A program made the position numbers and the translations under genes. A model generated the notes under the pieces. It did not search any database. It saw nothing but the letters and a program-made list of their open reading frames with translations, and was not told where the DNA came from. Positions 17,229 to 63,193 of a DNA stretch of 64,000 nt are shown here, in pieces. Location: sequence record MN850609.1. One strand, given 5' to 3'. Numbering within the stretch: the first letter of the stretch is position 1; every line of letters starts with the position of its first letter. The DNA is from Escherichia phage dhaeg.

Positions 17229-17244
17229 GTTATTGATTTATAAT

Positions 17245-17269
17245 GGGAAGACTTCGGTCTTCCCTTTTT
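17245..17269 (+). terminator. intrinsic terminator after gene 32
   Basis: gggaagaCTTCGGtcttccc hairpin (UUCG loop) + TTTTT. Confidence 0.7.
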
Positions 17270-17280
17270 GGCATTTAATG

Positions 17281-17309
17281 GTTTACAATGCCTTTAAACA
17301 TGATACTAT
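17281..17309 (+). promoter_or_regulatory. early promoter cassette
   Basis: gtttac, 17-nt spacer, catgaTACTATagacctatcaa; near-identical to the cassette at 1-40. Confidence 0.55.
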
Positions 17310-17338
17310 AGACCTATCAACTACATGAGGAAATAAAA

Positions 17339-17707
17339 ATGGAAACTGGTAAATTTTACGTATTAGACCCTGCTGCCAAAAAACAATTCATCGCTGGTAG
17401 TCCTGATAACAATTCACGTATGGTTAAGATTATGGAACAACATGGCAGTTCCTTTAAAGTCCTGGGCATGTGTTATATCGACGGTGATTATTTTGTCGAA
17501 AAAGTTGAAATGAAAGATGGTACCATCCTGAAGTCTGTTTATGATAATGCTGACGAGTATTTTGAACTCGCTGAATGGGAATTCAAACACTTCATAGAAG
17601 TTGATGGCGATGCTCCTGCTGTTGATACCCAAACCATTCATGTGCAGGTAAATCATAAAAATGCGGCAGAAGTTGTTGCCTTGATTAAAGCTACCTTTGG
17701 AATTTAA
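17339..17707 (+). CDS. hypothetical early protein, paralog A (frd.x-like position)
   Basis: 122 aa; paralogous to the next gene. Confidence 0.55.
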   Translation: METGKFYVLDPAAKKQFIAGSPDNNSRMVKIMEQHGSSFKVLGMCYIDGDYFVEKVEMKDGTILKSVYDNADEYFELAEWEFKHFIEVDGDAPAVDTQTIHVQVNHKNAAEVVALIKATFGI

Positions 17708-17709
17708 AA

Positions 17710-18093
17710 ATGGAAATCGGTAAAAAATACGAACTTCGTCCTGAGCGTATCAAATCTTTTATTAATATCAGCCCTATCAATAATAATGATATGGTTGATA
17801 TTATCCAAGAAAACGGTGGTTGGTTTGAAGTAAAGGACATGATGACCACAGATGGGGATAAATTTGTAACTAAAATTAAATGTGCGAATGGTGAGATTTT
17901 TAGTTCGGACGGGACCCTAGAGGAATATTTTGAATTGCATGAAGATGAGTTCTATTGCTTCCGTGAATATGCCGAACAAGATGAAGTTGACGAACCTGTT
18001 ACTAAGGCAGGCGTAACTCAAATACATTGCATTGTTACCGAACAGAACGTTGACCAAATTATTAAACTTTTGCAAAAAACTTTTAAGGCCTAA
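17710..18093 (+). CDS. hypothetical early protein, paralog B
   Basis: 127 aa; shares ME.GK.Y.L.P...K.FI..SP.NN.MV.I.....F.V......DGD.FV.K......I.......EYFEL.E.EF with the 17339 ORF. Confidence 0.55.
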   Translation: MEIGKKYELRPERIKSFINISPINNNDMVDIIQENGGWFEVKDMMTTDGDKFVTKIKCANGEIFSSDGTLEEYFELHEDEFYCFREYAEQDEVDEPVTKAGVTQIHCIVTEQNVDQIIKLLQKTFKA

Positions 18094-18094
18094 C

Positions 18095-18355
18095 ATGACT
18101 AAAGATGATTTCCTGGATGCAGTAGAAAAAGCCAGTGAGAAATTTGAAGTGATGGGTGTACGAGTTCATAAAGACCGAAATTATGGCCTCGATATTCAAA
18201 CGTATTCGTTATGGCTTGTAGGTGAACATAGTCTTGTAACCAGCTTAGTTATGGGTGTTGATGCTCAACCTTTACTGGTTAAATTCAGAAGTATGGAAAA
18301 AGCTACCAAAGAAATGATTAAGCTTGGTAAATGGCTTGATAAAATTCAAAAATAA
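18095..18355 (+). CDS. hypothetical protein (86 aa)
   Basis: ATG at 18095 immediately after upstream stop; track ORF 18032 start overlaps previous gene. Confidence 0.45.
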   Translation: MTKDDFLDAVEKASEKFEVMGVRVHKDRNYGLDIQTYSLWLVGEHSLVTSLVMGVDAQPLLVKFRSMEKATKEMIKLGKWLDKIQK

Positions 18356-18357
18356 AT

Positions 18358-18386
18358 GTTTACATGGTCTATAGGCATGATACTAT
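18358..18386 (+). promoter_or_regulatory. early promoter cassette with inverted repeat ggtctatag/ctatagacc around -10
   Basis: gtttac 18358-18363, tactat 18381-18386. Confidence 0.55.
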
Positions 18387-18418
18387 AGACCTATCAACTA
18401 ATGAGTGAGGAAAATAAA

Positions 18419-18646
18419 ATGGCTAAGGTTAATATTGATATCGTTGATTTTGAATACACTTACGAAGTTATCCGTAATCGTTATCCTTCTTTGAATATGA
18501 CTTATATCAAAGATACGCAATTCTGTAGTATGCAAATTGAAGTCCAAGGTCCTCTTGAAGACCTTACCCGCTTTATGGCTGATGAATATTGCGATGGTAT
18601 GCATGCTGAAGACGCTGAATTTTATATGGGCTTAATTCAAAAATAA
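18419..18646 (+). CDS. hypothetical protein (75 aa)
   Basis: ATG with gaggaaaataaa SD; track start 18401 lies in the promoter cassette. Confidence 0.45.
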
Positions 18647-18648
18647 GT

Positions 18649-18678
18649 GTTTACCTAAGGCTATGGTAGTGATACTAT
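18649..18678 (+). promoter_or_regulatory. early promoter cassette with inverted repeat aaggctat/atagcctt
   Basis: gtttac 18649-18654, tactat 18673-18678. Confidence 0.5.
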
Positions 18679-18704
18679 AGCCTTATCAACTTGAGGAGAA
18701 TAAA

Positions 18705-25248: not shown

Positions 25249-26393
25249 TTGAATTATATGATAACTTGATGACTTTGGTTAAAAACTCGACTAAATCTAA
25301 GTTCTTCTTTAAAGACTTCCAGAGTGCGCTAGGAGTCAACTATCGCATCTTTAGTTATAACTATGCATCGTACAGTGATTGGTTGGAAGACGGCGCACTA
25401 GAGTGCCGAGGCATTATGTTTGAAATGGACGAGAATGGTCCTGTACGTATCGCTGCTCGTCCTATGCAAAAGTTCTTTAATCTCGATGAAAACCCGTTGA
25501 CTATTGGTTTGGATTTATCACAAGAAAATATCGACCTCGTAATGGCCAAGGAAGATGGTTCTTTGATTTCTACCTTCATGGATAGACAATATCTTTCTGT
25601 TAAATCTAAAGGCTCTATCCATTCATCGATGGTACATGATTCTTTACGTTTCCTTCGACTCCCTGAAAATGAGGCCTTTGCTGCTCGTTTAGAAGAAATT
25701 ACTAAAGCAGGCTATACGTGCAACCTCGAGTATGTTTCGCCTACTAACCGTATTGTGCTGGCATACCAAGAAACAAACCTTATCTTACTGAACGTTCGTA
25801 ATAACGAAACAGGTGAGTATATCCCTTACGCTGAACTGTTTAAAGATGGCGCTCTGCGTAAGCATTTGGTTAAAAGCTATGAACTCGCTGAAGGTGATTT
25901 TGTTGACAATATCCGTAAACAAGAGGGTATTGAAGGCTTTATCTTTGTACTTAAAGATGGTACGTTCTTTAAACTCAAAACCGCTTGGTATAGCGCACTG
26001 CATCATACCAAAGATTCCATTAACAACAACGAACGTTTGTTTGAAGTTGTAGTGGCCGGTGGAACCGATGACCTCCGAGGTTTGTTCAGCACAGATTCAT
26101 TTGCTATTGAGAAAATCAATGCATTTGAACGTATCCATTTAGACTACTTAGAACAGTCCTTGGCTTTGTTAGAAGCAGCATATTCTCAGCTCAAGGGTCG
26201 TGACCGTAAAGACTATGCTGTTACCGGTCAGTTAATTCTCAAAGACTTCCCAGGGCTGTTCTCTATTCTTATGCAGGCGTACGTAGGCGGTATTAATTAT
26301 GATACGGTCGTAGACCAGATTAACTCTGTGTTCTTGAAAAATCATAAGGCCCAAATCCCTGAAAAATATTTGAAAGAAATTGTGATAGAGTAG
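25245..26393 (+). CDS. rnlA: RNA ligase 1
   Basis: 382 aa; YRIFSYNYASYSDW...ALECRGIMFEMD, KEDGSL (lysine nucleotidyl motif), NRIVLAYQE...LLNVR.NETGEY match T4 Rnl1. Confidence 0.95.
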   Translation: MIELYDNLMTLVKNSTKSKFFFKDFQSALGVNYRIFSYNYASYSDWLEDGALECRGIMFEMDENGPVRIAARPMQKFFNLDENPLTIGLDLSQENIDLVMAKEDGSLISTFMDRQYLSVKSKGSIHSSMVHDSLRFLRLPENEAFAARLEEITKAGYTCNLEYVSPTNRIVLAYQETNLILLNVRNNETGEYIPYAELFKDGALRKHLVKSYELAEGDFVDNIRKQEGIEGFIFVLKDGTFFKLKTAWYSALHHTKDSINNNERLFEVVVAGGTDDLRGLFSTDSFAIEKINAFERIHLDYLEQSLALLEAAYSQLKGRDRKDYAVTGQLILKDFPGLFSILMQAYVGGINYDTVVDQINSVFLKNHKAQIPEKYLKEIVIE

Positions 26394-26421
26394 TTTACAT
26401 CTCCTCATGATGTGTTAGTAT
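26393..26421 (+). promoter_or_regulatory. early promoter cassette upstream of alc
   Basis: gtttac 26393-26398, tagtat 26416-26421, flanked by inverted repeat ctcctcat/atgaggag whose 3' arm contains the SD. Confidence 0.5.
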
Positions 26422-26451
26422 AGACTTACCAACTAATGAGGAGAAAACAAA

Positions 26452-27580: not shown

Positions 27581-27684
27581 TCGAGGCTTGTGCTGACGGG
27601 TGGGATATCGTTCGATTTGGTTTTGCATGCTTTTGTTTTGGAATCGTGTTCAGCATGTGTATGAACGGTATTTTTGGAAAGTAG

Positions 27685-27713
27685 TTTACAAACTCTTAGG
27701 AGCAGAGTATAAT
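27685..27713 (+). promoter_or_regulatory. early promoter cassette (GTTTAC, 17 nt, TATAAT inside taggagca/tgctccta inverted repeat)
   Basis: gtttac 27685-27690; tataat 27708-27713. Confidence 0.55.
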
Positions 27714-27747
27714 GCTCCTACGGATTATAAAAATTGAGGAAATGACT

Positions 27748-30124: not shown

Positions 30125-30154
30125 GTTTACAACATGGTAGGACTGTGGTATAGT
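30125..30154 (+). promoter_or_regulatory. early promoter cassette with inverted repeat gtaggact/agtcctac
   Basis: gtttac 30125-30130; tatagt in loop. Confidence 0.5.
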
Positions 30155-30184
30155 AGTCCTACCGAAACAAATGAGGAAATCGAA

Positions 30185-33355: not shown

Positions 33356-33360
33356 GTTAT

Positions 33361-33390
33361 GGGACTCTTCGGAGTCCCATTTTTGTTTCT
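33361..33390 (+). terminator. intrinsic terminator
   Basis: gggactCTTCGGagtccc + TTTTTGTTT. Confidence 0.7.
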
Positions 33391-33476
33391 AAATCTTTAA
33401 AAAAGGGTATACATCTCCGGTAGGCATGATACTATAGACATGTACCAAATAATACGAAAACAAACCGGAGAATAAA

Positions 33477-33845
33477 ATGAAAATCAATCTTAACTCATAT
33501 ATCAAATGTAAAGACCACGACGGTTATAAAGCTATTGAAACTAAAGAGATGCAATGGCGCTTGTACAAAGAACAATTTGAATTTGTAGGTTGTATGACTC
33601 CTGAAGGTCCTTCCGATGACTTCTCTTGGAAAATTTTGGTAACAAACTTTTTTACTGGTGATACCTACGAACTGAAAACTATCATAACCGGTAAGATTCG
33701 TTGTAAGACCTATGAAGATGAAGAAACCGGTTATTCTGAAGATGTTACATGGTATCAAAATGGTCGTATAACTGCAGATAACTTGATCGAAAAAATGAAA
33801 GCCAAAGGTGAATTAAATTTAGATAATTGGATTAAAGTTGCATAA
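33477..33845 (+). CDS. hypothetical protein (122 aa)
   Basis: ATG after ggagaataaa SD; leader nearly identical to that of the next gene. Confidence 0.5.
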   Translation: MKINLNSYIKCKDHDGYKAIETKEMQWRLYKEQFEFVGCMTPEGPSDDFSWKILVTNFFTGDTYELKTIITGKIRCKTYEDEETGYSEDVTWYQNGRITADNLIEKMKAKGELNLDNWIKVA

Positions 33846-33848
33846 AAC

Positions 33849-33876
33849 GGTTTACTTTGGTACAGGTTGTGTTATT
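33849..33876 (+). promoter_or_regulatory. early promoter cassette with inverted repeat ggtacaggt/acctgtacc
   Basis: gtttac 33849-33854; tattat 33871-33876. Confidence 0.5.
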
Positions 33877-33919
33877 ATAGACCTGTACCAAATAATACGA
33901 AAACAAACTGGAGAATAAA

Positions 33920-34285
33920 ATGAACTACATCAACTTCGAACGTAAATATGTTTCTAACGGTATCGCTGGTTCTTCTGAAGTTATTTGCCTGTGGAAACAC
34001 AACAACGGCACAGTGTGCGAAATCGAACAGTGCATGACTCCTAACTACGTTTATATGCGCTTTGAAAATGGTATCACGGTTTCAATCACTATGGAAGGTT
34101 CTACTTTTAAAATCGCTTTAGACGATGATTTCCGTCAACGTGATTTAGGTACCCATCCTTGCTGGAACGGCGCTAATCGTAAGCTTCTGGTTAAAACTTG
34201 GATTCGTCATATCCTGAGCAACCGTGCTAAACCTGAACACCTGGAAGCAATCTTTGATGTAGTTCTGAATGAATTTGATATCTAA
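33920..34285 (+). CDS. hypothetical protein (121 aa)
   Basis: ATG after ggagaataaa SD. Confidence 0.5.
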   Translation: MNYINFERKYVSNGIAGSSEVICLWKHNNGTVCEIEQCMTPNYVYMRFENGITVSITMEGSTFKIALDDDFRQRDLGTHPCWNGANRKLLVKTWIRHILSNRAKPEHLEAIFDVVLNEFDI

Positions 34286-34326
34286 TCTTAAAAATGGAGG
34301 CTTCGGCCTCCTTTGAGGAAAATATT

Positions 34327-38338: not shown

Positions 38339-40399
38339 ATGACCGAACAATTGAATGAGGTGTTTGAGTCCGAAGGCACCCTGCCTACTGTAAACTTAAA
38401 CCCAAAACTTAAAGTACCGCAGATTTGGAAGATTGGCGACGCCGAATCCCAATTAGTGGCCCGTATGGTATCTTATGCCTCTGAAGGCGATGCTATTAAA
38501 CAGGTTAAATTAGGTGATAAATACGCCCATGTTATCCTTATGAGCCTTTCAGCTAAAGGTTCTCCGGCCGAACTTAAAGGTGGCTTAGGCCCTACTCCTA
38601 TTGATGCTATTAATACCATTTTCGACGTAGTATTCGAACAAGTTAAAAAGCTTCGTATGGATGCTGTGATGTTCCGTTTTCCAACCAAGAAAATGAAAGG
38701 GCAAGGACCTATTGTCCAACGGATTATCCAACGTTTGGTAGCACAGAAAACCGGTGGACGTTTTAAAGTAGTTCCGGCTATGTACCAATTTACCGGTAAA
38801 CATACTTATATCCTAGTAGTTCGTAAACAAGCTGATATCGAAGATATCAAAGGTATGCCTGGAATTAATGCCGAATTGTATACTAAGGTAGATTCTGATG
38901 TTGGTGAAGTTTATATTTCTAAAAAAGAAGGCCTGCAGGTTACTAAAGAAACTGCTATTGCCGGCAGTATTGCTAAAGTTGAAGAACGTCGCACTGATAA
39001 AATGGTTATAACCAAGACTAAGATTTCTCGTCGCGCTATTGCAGCAAGCCAGTCTTTAGAATCCTATCGTAATGAAAGTGAACTGTTTAAGAAATATGAA
39101 GCCACTGCCGCTGATTTTAATAAACCGGCAACAGCTCCATTAATCCCTGATGCCCAAGAAATGGTTACTAATAACAATTCTCCTGCGGCTAAAAATAAGG
39201 TTGCTAATATAGTAGCTGAAGGCACTGCTGAAGAGTTGCATTACGATTATAAAATGTTTCCTCTTCACGGTATAGGTGAAATCCAAGAGAAAATTAAAGA
39301 GAGAATCCTTACGGCCATCAAAAACGAACCTTTGACATCTGTTAAAGCTCTAGAAAAATATGCCTCTGTTATTAATACCGTTTTCGAAGAATACAAAGGT
39401 GAATGGCTGGCTAAGCATAACAAAACTCGTAAAGGTCAGCCTGATGACGTCTGGAATGAATTAACCGAGTCCAAGTGGAAAGCAGCCAAGACCAAGTTCA
39501 TTAAAAAACGTGTGTATAGTTTTGCTGGTGTAGGTGGTGGTATTATGGTTGATATTACTTTAGGTCATAGTGCAGATAAATACACCCCTTCTCAAAAACG
39601 TGGTATTCGTGAATATTGTGGCTCCGGATATGGCGATATCAATAACCTTCTTTTAGGACGATATAATCCTCAGAACTATGAGGTTATGAGCGAAAAAGAT
39701 ATCGAATCTGCAGTTAATAATTTGGATTCTGCTTTTGAAAACGGTGATAGATTACCTGAAGGCATTACTGTTTATCGTGCACAGAGTATGACGTGGGCCA
39801 TATATAATGCTTTAGTCAAAAATAAAGTATTCTATTTTAGAAACTTTGTATCCACTTCACTGACTCCTATTATTTTCGGCCGTTTTGGTGTTACTCATGC
39901 GGGTGTGGGTCTTTTAGAGCCTGAAGTTAGAGCCGAACTTACCGTAGATAAAAATGATGAAGGTTATACTAAGGTCCAAGGTTCCGGCGACAAGTTGGTT
40001 AAAGTTGGTTGGGCTATTGATGGGGCTTCTAAGGTTAACGTAGTATTCCCTGGGCAACTTGGCATTGCTACTGAAGCTGAAATCATTCTCCCGCGTGGAC
40101 TAATGGTAAAAATTAATAAAATAACAGATGCATCCAATAATGACGGTATAATATCCAACAATACAAAACTCATTCAAGCTGAAGTTATGACAACAGATGA
40201 GCTTCAAGAGTCAGTGGTATATGATGGTGATGTACTAATGGAAACTGGTGAATTGGTTGTATACCAAGATGACTTCGATACTTCCGAAAGCCCTGTATCT
40301 TTTGATTCATTTGTTAAATCTACACGGTTTGACGTACTGCCTCTTTTGGCTTCATGCATAGACCTCTATGACATCCCAGAAAAATTCATCCAAGGGTAA
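38339..40399 (+). CDS. alt: Alt-like ADP-ribosyltransferase, paralog 1
   Basis: 686 aa; N-terminal packaging region like T4 Alt (..LP.TNL.PK.K.PQI, MDAVMFRFPTKKMKG); C-terminal R-S-ExE ART signature (VYRAQ, FVSTSL, EAEIILPRG). Confidence 0.85.
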   Translation: MTEQLNEVFESEGTLPTVNLNPKLKVPQIWKIGDAESQLVARMVSYASEGDAIKQVKLGDKYAHVILMSLSAKGSPAELKGGLGPTPIDAINTIFDVVFEQVKKLRMDAVMFRFPTKKMKGQGPIVQRIIQRLVAQKTGGRFKVVPAMYQFTGKHTYILVVRKQADIEDIKGMPGINAELYTKVDSDVGEVYISKKEGLQVTKETAIAGSIAKVEERRTDKMVITKTKISRRAIAASQSLESYRNESELFKKYEATAADFNKPATAPLIPDAQEMVTNNNSPAAKNKVANIVAEGTAEELHYDYKMFPLHGIGEIQEKIKERILTAIKNEPLTSVKALEKYASVINTVFEEYKGEWLAKHNKTRKGQPDDVWNELTESKWKAAKTKFIKKRVYSFAGVGGGIMVDITLGHSADKYTPSQKRGIREYCGSGYGDINNLLLGRYNPQNYEVMSEKDIESAVNNLDSAFENGDRLPEGITVYRAQSMTWAIYNALVKNKVFYFRNFVSTSLTPIIFGRFGVTHAGVGLLEPEVRAELTVDKNDEGYTKVQGSGDKLVKVGWAIDGASKVNVVFPGQLGIATEAEIILPRGLMVKINKITDASNNDGIISNNTKLIQAEVMTTDELQESVVYDGDVLMETGELVVYQDDFDTSESPVSFDSFVKSTRFDVLPLLASCIDLYDIPEKFIQG

Positions 40400-40402
40400 A
40401 TA

Positions 40403-42526
40403 ATGGAAAATTTAAACGAAGTTTTTGATAGTGATTCCGCTAAAAACTATCCAGTAACAAATCTTAAACCAGGCTCCGGTATCCCACAGATTTTCTCTAT
40501 TCAAGCACCAGGTAACGATAACCTGGTTGCTCGTATGGTATCTTATGCGTCTCAAGGAGACGCTATTAAAATGGTTAAGCCCGGCGACAAATACGTTCAT
40601 GTTATTTTAATGAGTTTGTCGAGCAAGGGTGCTCCAGCTGAACTAAAAGGTGGCCTTGGTTCCGACCCACTTGGTACATTGAATACTATTTTCGATACGA
40701 TATATGAACAAGTAAATAAACTTAAAATGGATGCGGTTTTGTTCCGTTTCCCTACCAAGAAAATGAAAGGTAAGGGCCCTACTGTTCAGCGTGTATTAGC
40801 TCGTTTGGCGATGGCACGTACCGGTGGTAAGTTTAAAGTTGTCGATAGCATGTTCCAGTTTAGTGGTAAACATACATACGTTCTTTTAGCACGTCGTGGC
40901 ACTAATATCGAAGATATCAAGGGTATGCCTGAAATTGATGCGGACCTTTATACCAAGGTTGAGTCTAAAGTCGGTGAAGTTTATGTTTCTAAGAAAACCG
41001 GCCAGGCCGTAAGTAAGGTCGAAGCCGTAGCAGCATCTATTGCACAGGTTGAAGAGAAACGTACCGATAAGGCTGTTATCTCTCGTACTAAAATTTCCCG
41101 TCGTATGGCTGCAGCAGCGCAGTATTCTACTGCCGAACCTGAAACTTTATCACCTAAAGAATTGCAGGTTTATAACGAGTTTGAAGCTTCCGTCCCTGTT
41201 CACTCGGCCGAAGGCCCTGAGAACGAAGGTATTGAACAAATTAGCCAGAACTTTAAAAAAGGTGCTATTACTAAAATGCGTCAGGCCTCTCAGTTTAAAT
41301 CTAAGAGTGAGGACCTTGCCAACTTTAGATACACCATTGCTCTCACACACGCTTTAATGACTGATAGTAAATTTAAACTAAATTATGCTAATAGAGATAA
41401 ACAAGGGTTTGAAATTTACTCTAATAATATGGCATTTTTTAATACGGAAGTCGATAGACTTTTAAGCGGCCTTTCTCAAATCAATACTACCAATAGTCTG
41501 GATATTATTAAGAGAATTGTTAATAACCTGAGTGCCCGTTTTCAGGGGTCTCCTTCAGAGAAAGCATCCCGAATTGCTTTCGCTATGGAAGCCGTTTATA
41601 AACTGATTAACGATTCTATTAGCGATGCATATGCTTATTCAGGCGAGCTCATTAAACCTAAGGGCTTGACCAAAGACGAAAGTAATGCCATTATTGAATA
41701 TTGTGCGGCTGAATATGCTCCTATGAACTTATTCCTTTTAGGTAAACCTGAATCCGAAAACAATACAACAGCTATTAAATTGATTAAGGATTTAGACTCA
41801 GCATTTACCAAGGGTATTAAACTTCCTAAGGGTACTATTTTGTATCGTGGTCAGGATTTACCATACAAAATTCTGCGCCATAATATTGATAACAAAACCT
41901 TTTACTTTAAGAACTTTGTATCCGCTTCATTAAAGCCTAATATCTTTGGTGAATTTGGTAAAAATTATATGGCCCTCGACAACCAAGCAGTTTTTGTTGG
42001 TGATGAAGGTTCTTTATCCTCCGCCGATGAGTTGTTTAAATTGGCCAGTGGTAGTTCATCTGACGTAGGTGAAGTTGATGATGAAGAGGTAGAATGGGAA
42101 GAAGACGAGTTTGGTAATCCAATTGCACCTGAAGGCCCTGCAGACAGGATTGCTGAAATTGGTATGGTTATTCGAGGTGCTGAAGCAGTTAAAGTTATCG
42201 CTCCTGGTGACCTTACAGAATATGCCGAAGAAGCGGAAATTATCCTTCCGCGCGGATTATTGTTGAAGGTTGATAAAGTAGCAGCTTTTGCTATGAATGA
42301 TAGGGTATCTCACAAATACCTTATGGAAGCTACAGTGACATCTCCTTCAGAACTCAGTGAGTCCGTTTACGATGGTGACCATCTGATGGAAACCGGCGAA
42401 GTTAAATTGATGAATGGGTTTAAAGAATTCCTAGTTTCAGAATCTGTTTCAGAAAGTAACGAGGCTATGGAAATCCTTGCTGCATCTTTGGACATCTCTT
42501 CTTTACCAAATAAATTCAAAATGTAG
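40403..42526 (+). CDS. Alt-like ADP-ribosyltransferase, paralog 2
   Basis: 707 aa; first ~230 aa closely similar to paralog 1, divergent middle; ART signature (LYRGQ, FVSASL, EEAEIILPRG). Confidence 0.85.
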   Translation: MENLNEVFDSDSAKNYPVTNLKPGSGIPQIFSIQAPGNDNLVARMVSYASQGDAIKMVKPGDKYVHVILMSLSSKGAPAELKGGLGSDPLGTLNTIFDTIYEQVNKLKMDAVLFRFPTKKMKGKGPTVQRVLARLAMARTGGKFKVVDSMFQFSGKHTYVLLARRGTNIEDIKGMPEIDADLYTKVESKVGEVYVSKKTGQAVSKVEAVAASIAQVEEKRTDKAVISRTKISRRMAAAAQYSTAEPETLSPKELQVYNEFEASVPVHSAEGPENEGIEQISQNFKKGAITKMRQASQFKSKSEDLANFRYTIALTHALMTDSKFKLNYANRDKQGFEIYSNNMAFFNTEVDRLLSGLSQINTTNSLDIIKRIVNNLSARFQGSPSEKASRIAFAMEAVYKLINDSISDAYAYSGELIKPKGLTKDESNAIIEYCAAEYAPMNLFLLGKPESENNTTAIKLIKDLDSAFTKGIKLPKGTILYRGQDLPYKILRHNIDNKTFYFKNFVSASLKPNIFGEFGKNYMALDNQAVFVGDEGSLSSADELFKLASGSSSDVGEVDDEEVEWEEDEFGNPIAPEGPADRIAEIGMVIRGAEAVKVIAPGDLTEYAEEAEIILPRGLLLKVDKVAAFAMNDRVSHKYLMEATVTSPSELSESVYDGDHLMETGEVKLMNGFKEFLVSESVSESNEAMEILAASLDISSLPNKFKM

Positions 42527-42556
42527 TTTACAACACCACAAGGATGTGGTACTATT
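42526..42556 (+). promoter_or_regulatory. early promoter cassette
   Basis: gtttac 42526-42531, ccaca/tgtgg inverted repeat, tactat 42551-42556. Confidence 0.5.
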
Positions 42557-54864: not shown

Positions 54865-54886
54865 AGGGCCGCAAGGCCCTTATTTA
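54865..54886 (+). terminator. terminator after hoc
   Basis: agggcc-gcaa-ggccct + TATTT (weak T-run). Confidence 0.45.
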
Positions 54887-54946
54887 GTTTATGATAATGT
54901 TTCGGGAGATTAAGTTATTGACGAATAATTTTTAATAGGTGGATAT

Positions 54947-55126
54947 ATGAAATTTAACAAAGATATAGGGTTGTTGGTTTTCTTTATAGTGCTGTTTTTG
55001 TTTTCGTTAATTTCATTAACTAGTGGGTTGTTTGCTTCTATATTGGCTCTTTTCACATGCATTAGTTCCTTTTTTGGGATAATAGCTACTATAGATAAAA
55101 TTTTACATACCAAAAAGGGCCCGTAG
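54947..55126 (+). CDS. small hydrophobic ORF (59 aa, predicted membrane peptide)
   Basis: MKFNKDIGLLVFFIVLFLFSLISLTSGLFASILALFTCISSFFGIIA...; sits between convergent terminators; weak SD. Confidence 0.3.
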   Translation: MKFNKDIGLLVFFIVLFLFSLISLTSGLFASILALFTCISSFFGIIATIDKILHTKKGP

Positions 55127-55140
55127 GCCCTTTATTATTT
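55114..55140. terminator. bidirectional terminator
   Basis: aaagggcc-cgta-ggcccttt with T-runs on both strands. Confidence 0.6.
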
Positions 55141-56001
55141 TTCAGGAGGGACGTAAACTAAGTCTTTCCTTTCTAAGATGTAGCCATTTCTCGACTCTTG
55201 TATCTCTACTTCAGGATACTTAGACAAAAGGTCGGCTACTTTTTGTAACTCACATTTATACTTGTATGGGCTGTTGTTTATATCCAAAGTCCAATCTTCT
55301 CCCAATCTAACGGCTTCTCTTATTTCGTCCCATACCCACCAACCTATCCACATATACGATTCATTTCTTCCACCGCCATAGGGTAAATAAGCATTAAGGT
55401 CGTTATCATATATGAAAGGGCACTGCAATACATCATCCCTAGGTTTTATTTCAACTAAAAGTTCTTCAGAAGCAGGGATATATGCTCCTTCGCAGGTCGC
55501 TATAGATTTTAATGTATAATCTCCAAATTTATCAGGGTCGTCTATTAATATATCAATATCTTCGTCTTTAGATAATTCTACTCCATCTCTATACCATCTA
55601 CAAATTCTTTCGGCATAAGTGGGTTCCACTCTACACGACGGGCGAAGTGAAACTGTTTCTCCTATATTGGCATATATTAATTCCCTAGAGTTTATATCTA
55701 GGACTATTCTTCTTGGAAGGGTACCTATTTCAAGTTCTATTTCGTTACTCTTTGTTATTTCACCACTTTTCTTATTTGTTATGGTCGCATAAAATGTTCC
55801 TGCCGCCGGGAATCCTACTTCCCATAAATTTAATTCAAAAGGGTCTTCGGTAGGAAGTTGTGGAATATGGACATCGTTTTTATACCAATTAATTTCTACG
55901 TCATCTAGAGTAGAACCGGGTGGTAATACAAACCCGGTATAAAAGGTTACTGTCCTGCCAACCAATTCATATCTAGGACCATTTATTTTAAGTACAATCA
56001 T
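55135..56001 (-). CDS. Hoc-like protein (Ig-like N-terminal domains + Hoc-type capsid-binding C-terminal domain)
   Basis: 288 aa; C-terminus YMWIGWWVWDEIREAVRLGEDWTLD...YKYKCELQKVADLLSKYPEVEIQESRNGYILERKDL aligns with Hoc C-terminus. Confidence 0.7.
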   Translation of the reverse strand: MIVLKINGPRYELVGRTVTFYTGFVLPPGSTLDDVEINWYKNDVHIPQLPTEDPFELNLWEVGFPAAGTFYATITNKKSGEITKSNEIELEIGTLPRRIVLDINSRELIYANIGETVSLRPSCRVEPTYAERICRWYRDGVELSKDEDIDILIDDPDKFGDYTLKSIATCEGAYIPASEELLVEIKPRDDVLQCPFIYDNDLNAYLPYGGGRNESYMWIGWWVWDEIREAVRLGEDWTLDINNSPYKYKCELQKVADLLSKYPEVEIQESRNGYILERKDLVYVPPEK

Positions 56002-56010
56002 TTAACCTCC

Positions 56011-57516
56011 TTAAAACGTGCTCATATTGGTATGGTCTTCGACAGAAAATAAAACTTCAACAGGGATATCTGTAGTCGTATTAAGAGGGCCGCCTACAAT
56101 AAACACAGATACAGTGTAGTATTTTCTAGTATCACGGTCAAATATTTCGTAACGGTTAAATTGTCTTGCACTAGAATAAGCCAAATCGTCGAATAATTCA
56201 GGAGATGATGACCACAACACATTACTCCAGTTGGCACATTCTATTCCGTTTTCATAGTTGGTAAATCTTTTAATATCAAGCCTATTAGTAAGACCTGCAT
56301 TAGTAGCCCTTATATGGATGCCTACAGATGAGTACATGCGAACATGAAGAACCATATTAAGGTCCCACAAACGTATTTCCTTCCACTCTGAAGTGTTCAG
56401 AGGCTTATCAAATCTTAAAGAGCCTTTCCAATATCTAGGTGGATAGAATGGGAAAAGTTTATCATATAAAGATTTTAATTGAGACTGGGTTAAAGAATCG
56501 ACATCAAATACTGCATCTTTGCCTGGCGCACCTGCAGGACCTATAGGACCTTGAATACCTTGTGGCCCGGGTTCACCCTTTTCACCTTTAGGACCTGGGT
56601 CGCCTTGCGGTCCTTGGGCACCTTGCTCTCCAGGTGCACCATCTTCTCCGGGATTTCCTGGACGCCCTTCTTTTACAAATAAATTCCAATAATCGGCCCA
56701 CAGGTCTCCACTCCCAGGATAACTATCATTATTTGCTATATTATCCTGGATACAAATCCAAGAAGACCCTTCGCACTGGACCAAATCGTTTATATAATAA
56801 GACGAACCAAGGGCCCAGTTTCCGGCCCAGATAAACCCATTACCATCTTGGCCTGGCGCGCCTTGTGGACCTTGAGGGCCGGTTGGGCCTGTTGGTCCTT
56901 GAGGACCTGGTGCACCGATATTAGCCAATAGTGCCCAAACTCCTTCGCTAGGAGGTATTGTTCCTGTATTAGAACTGATGCAAAAATAAGAAGCTCCCTG
57001 GTATCCAACTGCATCGTCTTTAGAGTATTGGGTAGATTCATCCCAGGCTCCCTTCCACACCAAACCTGCCGGGCCTATAGGACCTTGTGGTCCTTGCGGT
57101 CCTACTTCTCCTTGGGCCCCTTGTAAACCCTGAGGGCCTTCTTTTCCTGGTGAACCCGGGTCTCCTTTAGGACCTTCTGGACCTGCTGGTCCTGGTTCGC
57201 CCTTTTCTCCTTTAGGACCGGGGTTACCTTGAATACCTTGCGGCCCTGGGTCTCCTTTAGGGCCTTGTGGACCTTCAGTACCAGGTGTTAGCATCTCATT
57301 AGTTATACCTAAATGGGCCAACGCGCCTTCCCTAGAAGCTTGTTTTATAAATTCAAGTCCATAGCTTTGAGAAGAATCTAGCATAGTAGGGTCTAAGGTG
57401 CTTTCACTAGTGAGTATGTCCACAAATTCCAATGATTTGTTCTGTGGAACTTCTACTAATGATACGCCTCTAAAGTGGCCTCTACCATCATGCCCGTATA
57501 ATGGATTGTCTGACAT
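56011..57516 (-). CDS. collagen-like triple-helix repeat protein
   Basis: 501 aa; three blocks of G-x-y repeats rich in Pro/Gln/Lys/Glu ([49 protein letters not shown]...), interspersed with repeated W.G.W...Y..D.V...G.S..CI globular segments. Confidence 0.75.
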
Positions 57517-57526
57517 AAAATCTCCT

Positions 57527-58926: not shown

Positions 58927-58955
58927 AAGGGACCTTACGGTCCCTTTTATTTTTC
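58927..58955 (+). terminator. terminator after rnlB
   Basis: aagggacc-ttac-ggtccctt + TTATTTTT. Confidence 0.6.
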
Positions 58956-60227
58956 TAGTGGTGGAAGTTTAACACCGAGATAAGAACTCAACTGGCTTTG
59001 GTTAGCCATTTTGTCCATATCAGAACCATCAATAATGCGGGCTTCTTTATCGTCCTTAGCGACGGTATAAGGGTTTGCAGTCAATGCATAACGAGCAAGC
59101 AATGCTACTGTAGGTTGTAAGCTTTCTGGGTCAACAATAACCTTAAATTCACCTACTGAAGTATCACCTTCTTCATCAACCACATCCAAACCTTCCGTAT
59201 AAGGCGCATAATATAAAGATGCGACCGTCTGTCCTTCACCCATCTGAGCATTTACACCAACAATAACATAATCACATGGACTATTCATATCGGCATAAAG
59301 AGGTAGACCATTCTTTAATACACCATAAGCCAATTCATCTTGGTCTTCCTTTTTCTCAACCCAACCGGATGCAGCGAGAATAGCAGCACAACGAGAACTA
59401 GCTACGGCATAAGTCCCAGCGAAAGAAGTTTGACGTTGGACGGCAGAGTTCATCTCACACATGTAATAATATAATGTACGAGCACGGTCCTGGGCATTAT
59501 CATAACGTGGGTTAGTAAGGTCCAATACGCCCTTTTCAGAAACACCCTGGACTTTAAAACGAGAACTCACTGTAATTAATGACTGTAATACGTCCTTATT
59601 AATTTCTTCTGCCATTTGAATGCCTAGCAGATTTTCAATGAAATTAGGAGCATTAAACCCGTTTGATTCTAGGTCTTGGGCTAATTCGACTGTCAATGAA
59701 GTTTTCAGTTTACGTGATTTAACTTCAGATTGCCATTTGTCAATACGGAAGCCTGCTTCAGCAATTTCAGGATGGCCTTGTTCGAATTTAGAAGTAATAG
59801 CAGCATCTGATACCATACGAATATGCCCAGCGGCCACTGCTTCAGAAATAACTTCACCGAGGTCGGTTTCCGTGGTTCCGGCGAAAGGAGATGCTTCTAG
59901 AACTTTAAACACTACACTTTCAAACTGGAACATATCGCCGGCTGCATAAGCTGTAGACGAATCGGTAAATTCAGGAATATTTTCACGTTCCGACATACCA
60001 ATCTGGCCTGCAAATGTAGCGCCACCAAGATAAGTCATTTTGTCGTCAGGGTTAAGTACACGAACCCCGTACAGAGCAGCAACAGGTTGGCTTGTTTTTT
60101 GTTCAGCAACTAGGGCTTTAAAGATTCGTTTATTAGTTGCTTGGGTGTATGAAAGAAGAGCAGGACGGCCAACCGAGTTGGCAGCCGTCAATGTGGATTC
60201 TTTAATTAGGTCTATAATCTTAGACAT
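58947..60227 (-). CDS. gp24-like capsid vertex protein, divergent paralog
   Basis: 426 aa; same domain order as gp24/gp23 fold (..RK.LKT..TVELAQDLE.NGF.AP.F.E.LL...M..EINKD.LQSLITVS.R.KV.GVS..G..DLT) but about half identical to the adjacent copy. Confidence 0.8.
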   Translation of the reverse strand: MSKIIDLIKESTLTAANSVGRPALLSYTQATNKRIFKALVAEQKTSQPVAALYGVRVLNPDDKMTYLGGATFAGQIGMSERENIPEFTDSSTAYAAGDMFQFESVVFKVLEASPFAGTTETDLGEVISEAVAAGHIRMVSDAAITSKFEQGHPEIAEAGFRIDKWQSEVKSRKLKTSLTVELAQDLESNGFNAPNFIENLLGIQMAEEINKDVLQSLITVSSRFKVQGVSEKGVLDLTNPRYDNAQDRARTLYYYMCEMNSAVQRQTSFAGTYAVASSRCAAILAASGWVEKKEDQDELAYGVLKNGLPLYADMNSPCDYVIVGVNAQMGEGQTVASLYYAPYTEGLDVVDEEGDTSVGEFKVIVDPESLQPTVALLARYALTANPYTVAKDDKEARIIDGSDMDKMANQSQLSSYLGVKLPPLEK

Positions 60228-61510
60228 TAATCAGCCTCGTAAATAATTGCTGGAAGTTTAACACCAAGCAGATAAGACATATTACTCTGACCAGCCATTA
60301 AATCCATATTGGTTGCATCGATAACACGAGCTTCTTTATCGTCTTTAGCTACGGTGTACGGGTTAGCGGACAGTGCATAACGAACCATCAGAGAAATAGA
60401 AGGCTGTAATGAATCCGGGTCGACAATAACCTTATAAGCACCAACGTGTTCTTGGTCGTCTAAATCCAGGCCTTCTGTATATGGGGCATAGAAAATAGAA
60501 CCGACAACTTCATTACCACCATAGTTCTCTTTAACACCTACGATAACATAATCCAATGGGCTGTTAACGTCACAGAACAGAGGTAATCCATTCAACAAAT
60601 AACCATAGGCCGTTTCTGGGAGCCAATTATTATCTTCAGGTCTATGTTTTAACCAGCCAGAACCTGCAAGCATTGCAGCCACACGACTTGAAGCCACAAC
60701 AAACGTACCCGAATAAGAAGTAGTTTTCTGGATTTCAGAATTCATCTCACAAACAATTTCATAAAGTTTACGTGCAGATTCTGGAGCACTATCATAAGTC
60801 AAATCGATGATGCCATTATCAGATACACCCGTAACTTTATAGCGTTTGGATACGGTTATTAGAGATTGCAGAACATCTTTATTAATTTCATCTGCCATTA
60901 CTGTAGCCAGGAGGTCTTCTAAGAATGCAGGGGCGTCGAAGCCATTTGATTCCATATCCTGTGCTAATTCTACGGTCAAAGCAGTCTTCAATTTACGGGT
61001 CTTAACAGGGGCATTCCATTTATTAACCTGGAATACAGCATCAGAGATTTCTACATCACTCTCTTCAAATTTAGTGGTATGGGCTGCATCAGGAACCAAA
61101 CGACACGTTAATGACACCAAACCTTCTTGAAGAGCATCGGCCAATTCTGTAGCGCTAGTGGATGCGAGTGGGCTTGCTTGAAGAGCCTTATAAACCACAT
61201 TCTGATACTTAAAGTAGTCACCCTTGGCAATCGCCTGGGCTTTATCTGTGAGTTCCGGGATAGTTTCACGGTCTTTAGAACCAACTTCACCACCATAAAC
61301 TGCACCGGTTTGGAAACTGAATTCATTATCAGGGGTAAGATATTTGACACCATACAACGCAGCGATAGGTTGGTTTGTACGTTGTTCAGCGATGATATCG
61401 CGATAAATTAGTTTAGTGGTAGCACGGGTCAAAGCAACAAGATTAGGGCGACCCAATGAGTTGCTGGTAGTAGTTGTTGACTCGCGCAGTAATTCGTTAA
61501 TCTTTGCCAT
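60227..61510 (-). CDS. 24: gp24 capsid vertex protein
   Basis: 427 aa, same as T4 gp24; MAKINELLRESTTT.SNS.GRPNLVALTRATTKLIY.DI.A.QRTNQP.AA.YG.KYL.PDNEF. Confidence 0.92.
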   Translation of the reverse strand: MAKINELLRESTTTTSNSLGRPNLVALTRATTKLIYRDIIAEQRTNQPIAALYGVKYLTPDNEFSFQTGAVYGGEVGSKDRETIPELTDKAQAIAKGDYFKYQNVVYKALQASPLASTSATELADALQEGLVSLTCRLVPDAAHTTKFEESDVEISDAVFQVNKWNAPVKTRKLKTALTVELAQDMESNGFDAPAFLEDLLATVMADEINKDVLQSLITVSKRYKVTGVSDNGIIDLTYDSAPESARKLYEIVCEMNSEIQKTTSYSGTFVVASSRVAAMLAGSGWLKHRPEDNNWLPETAYGYLLNGLPLFCDVNSPLDYVIVGVKENYGGNEVVGSIFYAPYTEGLDLDDQEHVGAYKVIVDPDSLQPSISLMVRYALSANPYTVAKDDKEARVIDATNMDLMAGQSNMSYLLGVKLPAIIYEAD

Positions 61511-61546: not shown

Positions 61547-61600
61547 AAAGTTGTTTACAGCAAGGTTCCCACGTGTTACTATAGTACAGAAACAAGAATG

Positions 61601-61618
61601 GGAGACCGAAGTCTCCCA
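61601..61618 (-). terminator. hairpin after gene 23 (gggagaCTTCGGtctccc on minus strand)
   Basis: perfect 7-bp stem with UUCG loop, followed on minus strand by T-rich attcttgtttct. Confidence 0.5.
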
Positions 61619-61633
61619 TAATAAGGTTAGGTC

Positions 61634-63193
61634 TTAGATACCTTTAACATAAACGCGACGGAAGTAACCATTCAGACCGAGGCTGTTAACGATGTCCGGC
61701 ATACCATTCTGAATACGTTTGGTAGGTGCCTGAGCAGCTGGGTCAGCGAACGGGTTAATACCGATACCGTAACGAGTTTTGAAGCCCATTACCGGCTGGA
61801 AGTTCTTCGGATCGGAACCGCGCAGTGGGGTCAGTGCAACGTAAGGGGCGTAGTAGATACCTGCGTCCATTTCGTTGGAACCTTTATAACCGATGGTGAA
61901 GTAATCAGCACGGGCATACTGGTCGATGTAAACGCGATATTTACCACCAAGAACACCGGCAAATACTGCTTTAGTGGTGTCAACGTTGAAACCTTGACCC
62001 AGACCTTGAGCTGCATAACTTACAGAAGTATCAACTGCAGCCAGTACGTTAACTACGTTACGGGAAGCGATGATGAAGTTACCAGCACCACGACCGGTCT
62101 GACGAGCGATTTCGGCTGCTTCTTTATCAATCTGGAACAGAAGGGCTTTAAAGCTCTCACCGGCCCAACGAGCACCACGGATATCGATCGGGTCCTGGAA
62201 GTCAAACACACCAGCTTTAGCGCCAACGGTGTTGGTCATACCAGATTTACCAACCTGTGCAGAGTAGTTAATCCAATCAATAACTTCACGGTTGATTTCG
62301 AGCATAATTTCGGTAGCAAGGATACCGGACAGTTCAGCATCTGCATCCATACCGTGTACTGCACGAAGGTCCTGTGCCAGTTCGATGGAGTAACTTGCTT
62401 TCAGCTGACGGGATTTAGCTTCGATAACTTGTTTATCGATACGGAAGCCCATTTCGTTCCACGGGTTGTCCTGAGAACCGTTAAAGCCTTCCTGAAGTTC
62501 AGCGATAGAAGTAGCCATACCTTCAGCCAATTCAGCCAGCTGACCAGCTTCCAACAGAGAGGTTACGGCAACATCCAGTTTAGCAGCATCGGTAGCAGCA
62601 GCATCAACGGTTACGGCTTCAACAGCCTGGAAGTGTGCAGAACCGGTAGCTTCGAAGAAGTGAGAATAAATTTTACCAACTTCCAGAACTTTACCTGCAG
62701 CCAGTGCTTCAAAAGTCTGAGCAGCACCCTGACCAGAGAACATAGCATTCGGAGCATACATCGGGTGGAAAGCTTCTTTAGCGCCAGCAGCGATAGGGTC
62801 TTTACCGTATACTGCGCGCAGTGCAAATACCTGGCCGGTAGGGTTATTCAGAGGCTGAACACCACAAATATCAAAAGCAATCAGATGAGGAATAGCACGA
62901 CGAACCATACCCATTACTGCCGGCCCAATCTGAGTTACAGCACCAGAGGTCTGGCCAGCTGCGATATTGGTAGCATCATAACCGTGGTCACCACCGATTT
63001 CAGCTTCAGTCAGGAAAGAACCAAATGCTTCGGAGATTTTTTCGTCACGATATTCAGGAGCGGTCAGAATATCTTGTTCCTGGTTTTCAAAGATTTTAGC
63101 GATGATAGCTTGTTTAGAAGCACCAACGATTTCAGGAAGAGCTTCGTTTTCCAGCAGAGCGGACCATTTTTGTACTAATGCATTCTTTTTCAT
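61634..63193 (-). CDS. 23: major capsid protein gp23
   Basis: 519 aa; very high identity to T4 gp23 along its whole length (e.g. AIIAKIFENQE, DHGY.ATNIAAGQTSGAVTQIGPAVMGMVRRAIP.LIAFDICGVQP, C-terminal FRRVYVKGI). Confidence 0.98.
   Translation of the reverse strand: MKKNALVQKWSALLENEALPEIVGASKQAIIAKIFENQEQDILTAPEYRDEKISEAFGSFLTEAEIGGDHGYDATNIAAGQTSGAVTQIGPAVMGMVRRAIPHLIAFDICGVQPLNNPTGQVFALRAVYGKDPIAAGAKEAFHPMYAPNAMFSGQGAAQTFEALAAGKVLEVGKIYSHFFEATGSAHFQAVEAVTVDAAATDAAKLDVAVTSLLEAGQLAELAEGMATSIAELQEGFNGSQDNPWNEMGFRIDKQVIEAKSRQLKASYSIELAQDLRAVHGMDADAELSGILATEIMLEINREVIDWINYSAQVGKSGMTNTVGAKAGVFDFQDPIDIRGARWAGESFKALLFQIDKEAAEIARQTGRGAGNFIIASRNVVNVLAAVDTSVSYAAQGLGQGFNVDTTKAVFAGVLGGKYRVYIDQYARADYFTIGYKGSNEMDAGIYYAPYVALTPLRGSDPKNFQPVMGFKTRYGIGINPFADPAAQAPTKRIQNGMPDIVNSLGLNGYFRRVYVKGI

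Follow-up and report, generated by a model that had tools for sequence, protein, structure and literature searches.

Inverted repeats embedded in the T4-type early promoters of a Dhakavirus point to hairpins selected in sense-strand RNA

Genes and Promoters of the Gene 32 to frd.1 Interval

The stretch of DNA analysed here, 64,000 nucleotides (nt) of Escherichia phage dhaeg (MN850609.1; referred to as the window), harbors a series of early-promoter cassettes, many of which contain an inverted repeat around the -10 element. Three of these lie in the interval 17229-18704, which extends from gene 32 to frd.1 and includes the small genes frd.2a, frd.2b, orf232 and frd.3. A 3-kb query around this interval showed 97.6% identity to CLB_P2, 95.9% to JS10 and 95.6% to JS98, all members of Dhakavirus, Straboviridae, and by sequence the window is that of a Dhakavirus, i.e., a JS98-like T4-type coliphage. 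When the JS98 annotation was overlaid, the gene order was found to be motA, asiA, tail-fibre genes, rnh, 32, frd, td, nrdAB, rnlA and alc, followed by pseT, cd, 31, 30.x, 30 and alt, and then by the late baseplate and head genes. The coding fraction of the genome is 95%.

The interval opens with the canonical intrinsic terminator of gene 32 (17245..17269, + strand), in which GGGAAGA-CTTCGG-TCTTCCC (17245-17264) is followed by TTTTT, and which fills the slot held by an embedded hairpin at other junctions. The frd.2a promoter P17281 (17281..17338, +) is located 17 nt after this terminator, with the -35 at 17281-17286, the -10 at 17304-17309, a predicted transcription start (+1) at ∼17316, a Shine-Dalgarno sequence (SD) at 17327 and the start codon at 17339; it has no repeat, and the z score of its RNA fold is +0.09. 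The frd.3 promoter P18358 (18358..18418, +; -35 18358-18363, -10 18381-18386, predicted +1 ∼18393, SD 18407, start codon 18419) carries the arms GGTCTATAG (18366-18374) and CTATAGACC (18383-18391), with a predicted fold of -14.4 kcal/mol (z -2.45), and a G:T variant of this stem is present in one relative (L003). The frd.1 promoter P18649 (18649..18704, +; -35 18649-18654, -10 18673-18678, predicted +1 ∼18685, SD 18693, start codon 18705) carries the arms TAAGGCTAT (18656-18664) and ATAGCCTTA (18677-18685), with a fold of -19.3 kcal/mol (z -4.19). Both repeats belong to class A as described below. The promoters of frd.1 homologues in other genera contain different self-complementary arms (GGAGCTAT, GGTGTAGA, ATGGGGC). 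The +1 positions were set by counting 12 nt from where the -10 begins; applied to the annotated early promoter Pe133295 of T4, this rule gives the coordinate contained in its name, a +1 located within the 3′ arm. The genes frd.2a (17339-17707) and frd.2b (17710-18093) are tandem paralogues with 38% amino-acid identity and a common start region, TAAAAATGGAAA.

The Early-Promoter Motif

The motif GTTTAC-N16-19-TANNAT gave 13 matches in the window, all on the + strand, as against 1.05 ± 0.93 in shuffles. All eleven promoter sites listed in a preliminary description of this DNA were present among its cassettes. Two of the coordinates given there were off by 1 nt, the -35 hexamers starting at 27684 and 33850. 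The -10, which had been described as TAcTAT or TATAAT, also occurs as TAGTAT (26393), TATAGT (30125) and TATTAT (33850), and the block reported as an exact 30-nt repeat is 29 nt long (12-40 = 17292-17320), the preceding base being different. Permitting one mismatch revealed extra cassettes at 2391 (GTGTAC), 33407 (GTATAC) and 61553 that had been missed. The matches at 585 and 60766 sit within open reading frames (ORFs) and are probably due to chance. The window thus has 14 intergenic early-promoter cassettes, with an SD and a start codon following in 13 of them, the exception being 61553. The cassettes constitute a direct-repeat family of seven copies of 47 nt (D3). Scanning the window with a generic sigma-70 consensus showed no enrichment (44 matches vs 51.5 in shuffles); hence, only the T4-specific motif is informative.

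In the promoters, a GTTTAC-like -35 is separated by 17-18 nt (measured from GTTTAC) from a TAnnAT -10, in front of which TGn is often found; the -10 contexts of the three promoters of 17229-18704 are cATGaTACTAT or gTGaTACTAT. An A-rich, UP-like region was read by eye at about -40 to -44 (aaaattcaaaaataaatGTTTAC at 18358 and aattcaaaaataagtGTTTAC at 18649). In the T4 literature, the early consensus is given as GTTTAC at -36 to -31 and an A-rich stretch at -40 to -44, with UP, -35, TGn and -10 elements (Nolan et al., 2006, PMC1524935; Hinton, 2010, PMC2988021), and the "uber" early promoters of T4 described there share the same elements, the early-gene orientation and the position 5′ to small ORFs. 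All the cassettes lie on the strand of motA, asiA, rnh, frd.x, alc and 30.x, 5′ to early genes, those downstream being frd.1-3, alc, 30.8/30.9-like ORFs and others. The comparison set comprised 1.12 Mb from 60 sources (gene 32, pseT and motA loci from IMG/VR, the JS98 record and 132 kb of T4) and yielded 201 unique promoter sequences, which fell into 89 clusters at 75% identity. Sites with the motif plus a downstream SD and ATG in related T4-like loci numbered 234 on the gene strand vs 2 on the opposite strand. Judged by the GTTTAC -35, TGn, -10, A-rich upstream element and total strand bias toward early genes, the sites are strong early promoters of the T4 type, in agreement with the preliminary description.

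Inverted Repeats in the Cassettes

Perfect repeats of at least 8 bp were found in 6 of the 14 cassettes, as compared with 3.1% of random 60-nt windows and 2.1% of shuffles (binomial p ∼2e-6), and are thus commoner in the cassettes than in shuffled sequence. An early promoter with a stem-loop within or next to it occurs in 9/14 window cassettes and in two of the three in 17229-18704. The four inverted repeats quoted in the preliminary description are exact, and its view that many cassettes have stem-loops whose arms differ between copies was confirmed; it fits the published description of promoter-early stem-loop elements (PeSLs). The repeats do not always bracket the -10, as had been supposed: at 26393 and 33407 the 3′ arm is the SD and follows the 5′ arm at a distance of 27 and 42 nt, respectively, at 42526 the two arms lie within the spacer and the -10, and the cassettes at 1, 14012, 17281, 57527 and 61553 are without any repeat.

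AT-rich promoters that are themselves partly palindromic (TATA, CTATAG), together with copying between paralogous cassettes, could give rise to repeats by chance; indeed, CTATAG within TACTATAG is palindromic by itself, and several cassettes are paralogous copies (D3). This was evaluated against chimeras whose 5′ half came from one promoter and whose 3′ half came from a different one, so that position-specific composition is kept. A stem score of at least 8 was reached in 29/89 promoter clusters (33%) vs 6% of chimeras (p = 3e-14), and the frequency of repeats in random windows given above (3%) is likewise low; in a stricter version of the comparison with chimeras, the values were 18/52 vs 2.1%. 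Hence, the repeats belong to each promoter's own two halves and are not a product of promoter composition. With the covariation and compensatory changes presented below, a chance origin is effectively refuted and retains next to no probability.

The predicted read-through RNA of the repeat-bearing cassettes folds with -14 to -22 kcal/mol (z -2.3 to -4.9), and the RNA from the predicted +1 is essentially unstructured by folding. An Rfam scan of the whole window identified no family.

Two Classes of Embedded Hairpin

When positions are numbered from the start of the -10 hexamer (0), the 5′ arm was always found in the spacer, typically at -17 to -4, and always upstream of the predicted +1. The 3′ arm of the 26 class A clusters begins at the end of the -10 and reaches about +1 to +8 of the transcript; the loop is 8-14 nt, and the symmetry axis is sharply set near the first -10 base (register sum +1 in 13 clusters, -5 in 6). 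Class A stems end 5-19 nt before the SD in most clusters, oftenest 6-11 nt, leaving the SD untouched. In class B (9 clusters), the 3′ arm is the SD itself and the loop is 27-42 nt. Each class taken separately exceeds the chimeras, class A with p = 1.4e-14 and class B with p = 8.5e-6 (score ≥8).

Besides P18358 and P18649, class A in the window includes the asiA promoter P2391 (2391..2469, +; arms AAGAATA at 2404-2410 and TATTCTT at 2420-2426), P27684 (27684..27747, +; arms TAGGAGCA at 27697-27704 and TGCTCCTA at 27713-27720), P30125 (30125..30184, +; arms GGTAGGACT at 30136-30144 and AGTCCTACC at 30155-30163), the T4 counterpart of which is the annotated Pe133295, and P33850 (33850..33919, +; start codon 33920), which has a 12-bp stem (33856-33867 TTTGGTACAGGT and 33881-33892 ACCTGTACCAAA; z -4.87). 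Class B is represented by two promoters. The alc promoter P26393 (26393..26451, +; predicted +1 ∼26428; z -4.0) lies directly after rnlA, and the 5′ arm in its spacer, TCTCCTCAT (26400-26408), pairs with ATGAGGAGA (26436-26444), i.e., the SD. In P33407 (33407..33476, +; start codon 33477; z -2.35), TCTCCGGT (33414-33421) pairs with the SD sequence ACCGGAGA (33464-33471).

A third, weaker form, a 5-6 bp hairpin within the spacer (CCACAaggaTGTGG), is present at P42526 (42526..42583, +; ACCACA at 42535-42540, TGTGGT at 42545-42550), which follows alt and has the short hairpin in its spacer and -10, and in several T4 promoters. This spacer hairpin ends in the TGn of the extended -10, is below the stem threshold used and recurs in unrelated early promoters (Dhakavirus 42535-42550; T4 promoters with +1 at ∼167050, 50937 and 2422).

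Scanning T4 identified class B at regB, denV, alc, 30.8 and ndd.4 and class A at dmd, ipI, Pe133295, 30.7 and frd.1. T4 itself has the same promoter-hairpin architecture.

Selection on Pairing in Sense-Strand RNA

Covariation was evaluated in ungapped alignments anchored on the -10. A MAFFT alignment including the -35 was dropped, as it placed a gap within the 5′ arm and mis-registered the pairs. The alc promoters of five lineages have wholly different arms in the same pairing register: 87% of cells are paired and 8/13 pairs are changed on both sides, with 40-54% pairing in slid controls. For the class A set (orthologues of 30125 and 27684), 94% of cells are paired and 6/11 pairs are changed on both sides, with 26-57% in slid controls. 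A compensatory change in the L030 counterpart of P27684 converts TAGGAGCA/TGCTCCTA to TGGGAGCA/TGCTCCCA, and P30125 shows compensatory changes in L032 and L037.

The molecule under selection was approached through the mismatch spectrum, for which stems were permitted mismatches with an equal penalty for each type. Among 17 cluster-distinct internal mismatches, read on the gene strand, 16 were G:T or T:G and one was C:A, with no other type; in chance (chimeric) stems, G:T types make up 13.7% and A:C types 16.4% of mismatches (p = 2e-13 vs observed). This G:T-only asymmetry is as predicted for selection on sense-strand RNA, in which G·U pairs form, and speaks against a cruciform, an antisense RNA or a protein operator. 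The covarying arms, the G:T mismatches and the position of the 5′ arm upstream of +1 thus point to a hairpin selected in the sense-strand RNA. The earlier suggestion that the repeats have a structural role rather than that of an operator holds and is sharpened, as covariation and the mismatch spectrum put the selection on sense-strand RNA.

An action in DNA, either as a cruciform or non-template-strand hairpin modulating promoter melting or as a dyad operator for a dimeric regulator, would suit the tight symmetry axis of class A, and single-stranded DNA also tolerates G:T pairs. A cruciform, however, needs both strands paired, and mismatches are tolerated only as sense-strand G:T; arms that are wholly different between promoters and covary exclude a common protein site. 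Pairing of class B arms with an SD 30-45 nt away would be senseless for promoter melting, and the repeats are nearly absent where no upstream transcription arrives. Such an action in DNA is therefore considered highly improbable.

Genomic Context and Relation to Terminators

Among the 89 clusters, hairpins were found in 32/57 of those directly after a co-directional ORF without a terminator, in 2/19 with a canonical terminator ≤80 nt upstream, in 0/4 in divergent position and in 2/9 others (Fisher p = 4.6e-5). For class A, 25 clusters lie in the co-directional, no-terminator context vs 0 behind a canonical terminator. In the window, 9/9 promoters directly behind a co-directional ORF have a hairpin, and the context rule holds for 14/14.

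The hairpin-less promoters of the window are located elsewhere. The rnh promoter P14012 (14012..14071, +) lies in the divergent gap between gene 34 (-) and rnh (+), P57527 (57527..57585, +) also lies in a divergent gap, its upstream gene being on the - strand, and P17281 lies behind the gene-32 terminator. P61553 (61553..61582, +) is an orphan early promoter situated in the 124-bp gap that separates the late genes 24 and 23, both on the minus strand, and points antisense to gene 23 (window 61553-61634); at the same site in JS98, orf173 (∼290 nt more) begins immediately after the -10, and the hairpin GGGAGACCGAAGTCTCCC just downstream of P61553 is probably the gene-23 terminator on the other strand. 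The motA promoter P1 (1..63, +; -35 1-6, -10 24-29, start codon 64) has no embedded repeat, and in the closest relative a separate upstream hairpin is present beyond the window edge. This is a 9-bp hairpin, AGAGCTCTTgaaaAAGAGCTC, located in locus L053 ∼40 nt before the sequence that corresponds to window position 1 and followed by an A-rich tract without a U-tract; non-canonical hairpins thus occur outside promoters too. Promoters without an embedded repeat had a non-terminator hairpin upstream of the -35 in 2/25 cases vs an 8% background, i.e., with no excess.

Hairpins serving as 3′ stabilisers or RNase E sites exist in polycistronic mRNAs. Like these and like intrinsic terminators, the embedded elements are intercistronic hairpins a few nt after a stop codon, in a slot like that of the 17245 and 33359 terminators; they differ in having no U-tract, long loops that contain the -10 and an A-rich following sequence. 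The mutual exclusion of embedded hairpins and canonical terminators at the same kind of junction would be expected if the hairpins were ordinary intrinsic (Rho-independent) terminators overlapping the next promoter by chance. Moreover, one PeSL stem-loop from phi1 was as effective as rrnB T1 in lowering lacZ expression (Arbiol et al., 2010, PMC2839356). The structure of the hairpins is at odds with this explanation: no U-tract follows any class A stem, the 8-nt tail holding 0-4 T (≤3 in 67/70) with 49% A and 23% T, class A loops measure 8-14 nt and class B loops 27-42 nt, and the terminator scan called 17245 and 33359 but left every embedded hairpin uncalled. These hairpins are not intrinsic terminators of the canonical kind, and it is quite unlikely that they are ordinary terminators.

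The canonical terminator upstream of P33407 (33359..33385, +) consists of ATGGGACT-CTTCGG-AGTCCCAT followed by TTTTGTTT. The canonical terminators at 17245-17264, 33359-33380, 24813-26 and 34296-34311 (-) have UUCG-type tetraloops (CTTCGG) in common, in contrast to the long-loop hairpins embedded in the promoters.

Proposed Mechanism

These cassettes are probably early promoters whose spacer is complementary to their own leader or SD, the RNA hairpin forming only in read-through RNA and insulating neighbouring units from each other. Host sigma-70 RNA polymerase would read each early promoter, which is built of an A-rich UP region, the GTTTAC -35, a 17-18 nt spacer ending in TGn and the TAnnAT -10, and is fused to the leader and SD of a small early gene. 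Where the promoter lies directly behind a co-directional gene, the spacer is complementary to one of two downstream targets, namely, the 8-13 nt from the end of the -10 across the start site (class A) or the SD (class B). Since the 5′ arm is upstream of +1, no hairpin can form in the promoter's own RNA, and it forms only in RNA reading through from upstream. The hairpin may thereby insulate neighbouring expression units. In class B, the ribosome-binding site (RBS) would be hidden on the read-through RNA, and the gene would be translated only from its own early transcript. In class A, the upstream message would acquire a 3′-proximal hairpin that may act as an attenuator, an exonuclease barrier or a processing signal, and that may replace a separate terminator in a very compact genome. 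The motif, the repeats, their covariation, the pairing specific to one strand and the distribution complementary to that of terminators are observed features, from which we infer that the hairpin forms in vivo and affects termination, RNA stability and translation.

Several observations weigh against this proposal. Around half of all promoter clusters are below the stem threshold, many of them holding 5-6 bp or G:U-containing stems, and two class B clusters, including 33407, lie behind a terminator. The G:T tolerance is compatible also with a hairpin in single-stranded non-template DNA. An effect of class A on translation is doubtful, as the stems do not touch the SD, and, as class A has no U-tract, termination is not predicted by the canonical rule. 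The start sites and the read-through are inferred from T4. Finally, the clusters are set by promoter sequence and are not independent evolutionary events, which makes the p-values optimistic.

A wider generalization is that the embedded arms are a general, evolutionarily maintained "transcript-origin switch" of T4-type early regions. We consider this possible and advance it tentatively, as the balance is somewhat against it. If it were true, the spacer would encode an anti-leader or anti-SD strand, and immediate-early RNA from the promoter itself and read-through RNA would be translated or handled differently. The hairpins would then substitute for terminators at compact junctions, strictly immediate-early genes would have a sequence-level explanation, and the PeSL stem-loop would be reinterpreted as an RNA device and not a recombination signal.

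Cassettes and Gene Shuffling

The preliminary description had the cassettes marking the indel-variable genes and mediating gene shuffling. Of this, it stood that some breakpoints fall in cassettes. The gene 32-frd region is plastic, with relatives that are without frd.2a or frd.2b or have frd.2a and frd.3 permuted, and some homology blocks stop inside cassettes at window positions 17297, 18350 and 18640. In comparison with JS98, the breakpoints at 33845, 57517 and 61581 lie within 30 nt of a cassette: the ORF flanked by the twin cassettes 33407 and 33850 has been replaced, an insertion of 2.6 kb stops 10 nt short of the -35 of P57527, and orf173 is missing directly after the -10 of P61553. The segments 33427-33481 and 33870-33924 are 55-nt promoter-leader copies, 93% identical, that flank the ORF 33477-33845; the body of this ORF is unrelated sequence in JS98, which makes it the clearest cassette-flanked replacement in the window.

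An enrichment of breakpoints was suggested by this cruder comparison with JS98 and was not borne out by a test of 19 Dhakavirus loci, in which junctions with a cassette were broken in 5/9 cases vs 24/49 without one (Fisher p = 1). About 5 of ∼22 pure indels abut a cassette; the other ∼17 are clean gene-sized events with no cassette nearby, e.g., that of frd.2b (17710-18090). The deletion of frd.2a uses the paralogous ORF starts (D16) and not two cassettes, and relatives that have lost one frd.2 paralogue break exactly at the common start region and not at the promoter cassette.

These data bear on the explanation that the cassettes are full PeSL recombination modules in DNA, the stem-loop being kept for excision, insertion and swapping of small genes by way of mini-circles. 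The definition of PeSLs covers stem-loops between the -35 and -10 or overlapping the -10, and recombination was shown in phi1 and RB49 by inverse polymerase chain reaction (PMC2839356). The seven-copy 47-nt family, the 29-nt exact copy and the 55-nt copy speak for this explanation, as do the breakpoints listed above. The variable arms, in contrast, differ between copies and hence add no homology; the broken junctions and pure indels do not favor the cassettes; and the G:T-only mismatches and SD-pairing arms point to RNA, not DNA. That the stem-loops are kept as recombination modules is therefore rather unlikely. The cassettes may serve as occasional homology patches, and their driving of gene variability is unproven.

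Other differences and duplications were observed outside the cassettes. The 2.6-kb insertion relative to JS98 (54880-57520) lies between a hoc-like gene and a DUF2774 gene and contains two minus-strand ORFs, 56011-57516 and 55135-56001. The product of the first is 501 aa long and has collagen triple-helix repeats (Pfam E 8.6e-24) as well as a carbohydrate-binding module (CBM_5_12); the second encodes 288 aa and had no Pfam match. Tandem paralogues were found for alt (38339-40399 and 40403-42526; repeat families D2, D6 and D10; ∼72-78% identity) and for gene 24 (58947-60227 and 60227-61510; repeat family D4), both pairs being annotated in JS98 as well.

Relation to Known Systems and Significance

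The elements of the window belong to the known PeSL and T4 early-promoter kind, and their assignment to this family in the preliminary description was right. Two studies describe PeSLs. Arbiol et al. (2010, PMC2839356) proposed an attenuator role for upstream transcription, examined one stem-loop with lacZ and showed inter-PeSL recombination, and in the work of Comeau et al. (2014, PMC4122927) PST/T4 and nt-1/KVP40 were added to the phages with PeSLs. PeSLs and the present cassettes alike combine a strong early promoter and its AT-rich upstream region with a stem-loop and with the SD and start codon of a small gene; the stem-loop of phi1/RB49 is likewise found oftenest between the -35 and -10 or over the -10, and its authors noted G-T pairs in stems. 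The phi1/RB49 stems, however, are rich in G(n)...C(n) and accompany TTGACA-type promoters, whereas the promoters here and in T4 (by our scan) are of the GTTTAC type with AT-rich stems embedded around the -10; for the T-even pair PST/T4, the drawings place the stem-loops immediately before the promoter. The weight given in print to recombination and shuffling is without statistical support in the relatives of the window, and the SD-pairing subclass and the complementary distribution with terminators were not found in the passages of the PeSL accounts consulted. Searches of PMC2988021 and PMC1524935 gave no link of early promoters with an inverted repeat, hairpin or stem-loop. A literature search for T4 start-site or 3′-end maps and for earlier accounts of hairpins in early promoters returned only the PeSL papers and the reviews cited.

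Class B has the same logic as the RBS-sequestering hairpins with an internal promoter known from T4 e, soc, 49 and I-TevI (Uzan and Miller, 2010, PMC3014915), where the long transcript pairs the SD, the promoter lies in the DNA of the 5′ strand and the short transcript is open. At 26393 and 33407, similarly, the SD is predicted to be paired in the long transcript and the predicted short transcript is without the 5′ strand. The T4 internal promoters are late ones, delaying expression, whereas the promoters here are of the early type, and with such a promoter in class B, translation would be limited to the immediate-early transcript.

As promoters, the sites are textbook T4 biology, and the composite of promoter and stem-loop was named in 2010. 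The window contributes Dhakavirus members that have GTTTAC-type promoters with embedded AT-rich stems; added to the concept are the selection on sense-strand RNA, the upstream-transcription context and the RBS-pairing subclass, with the same pattern in T4 regB, denV, alc, dmd and ipI. Knowledge of these elements could be put to practical use in better promoter and operon annotation of T4-like therapeutic phages. If confirmed, the proposal would explain how dense early genes are kept as separate expression units without terminator sequence, and PeSLs would come to be seen less as recombination devices and more as RNA insulators.

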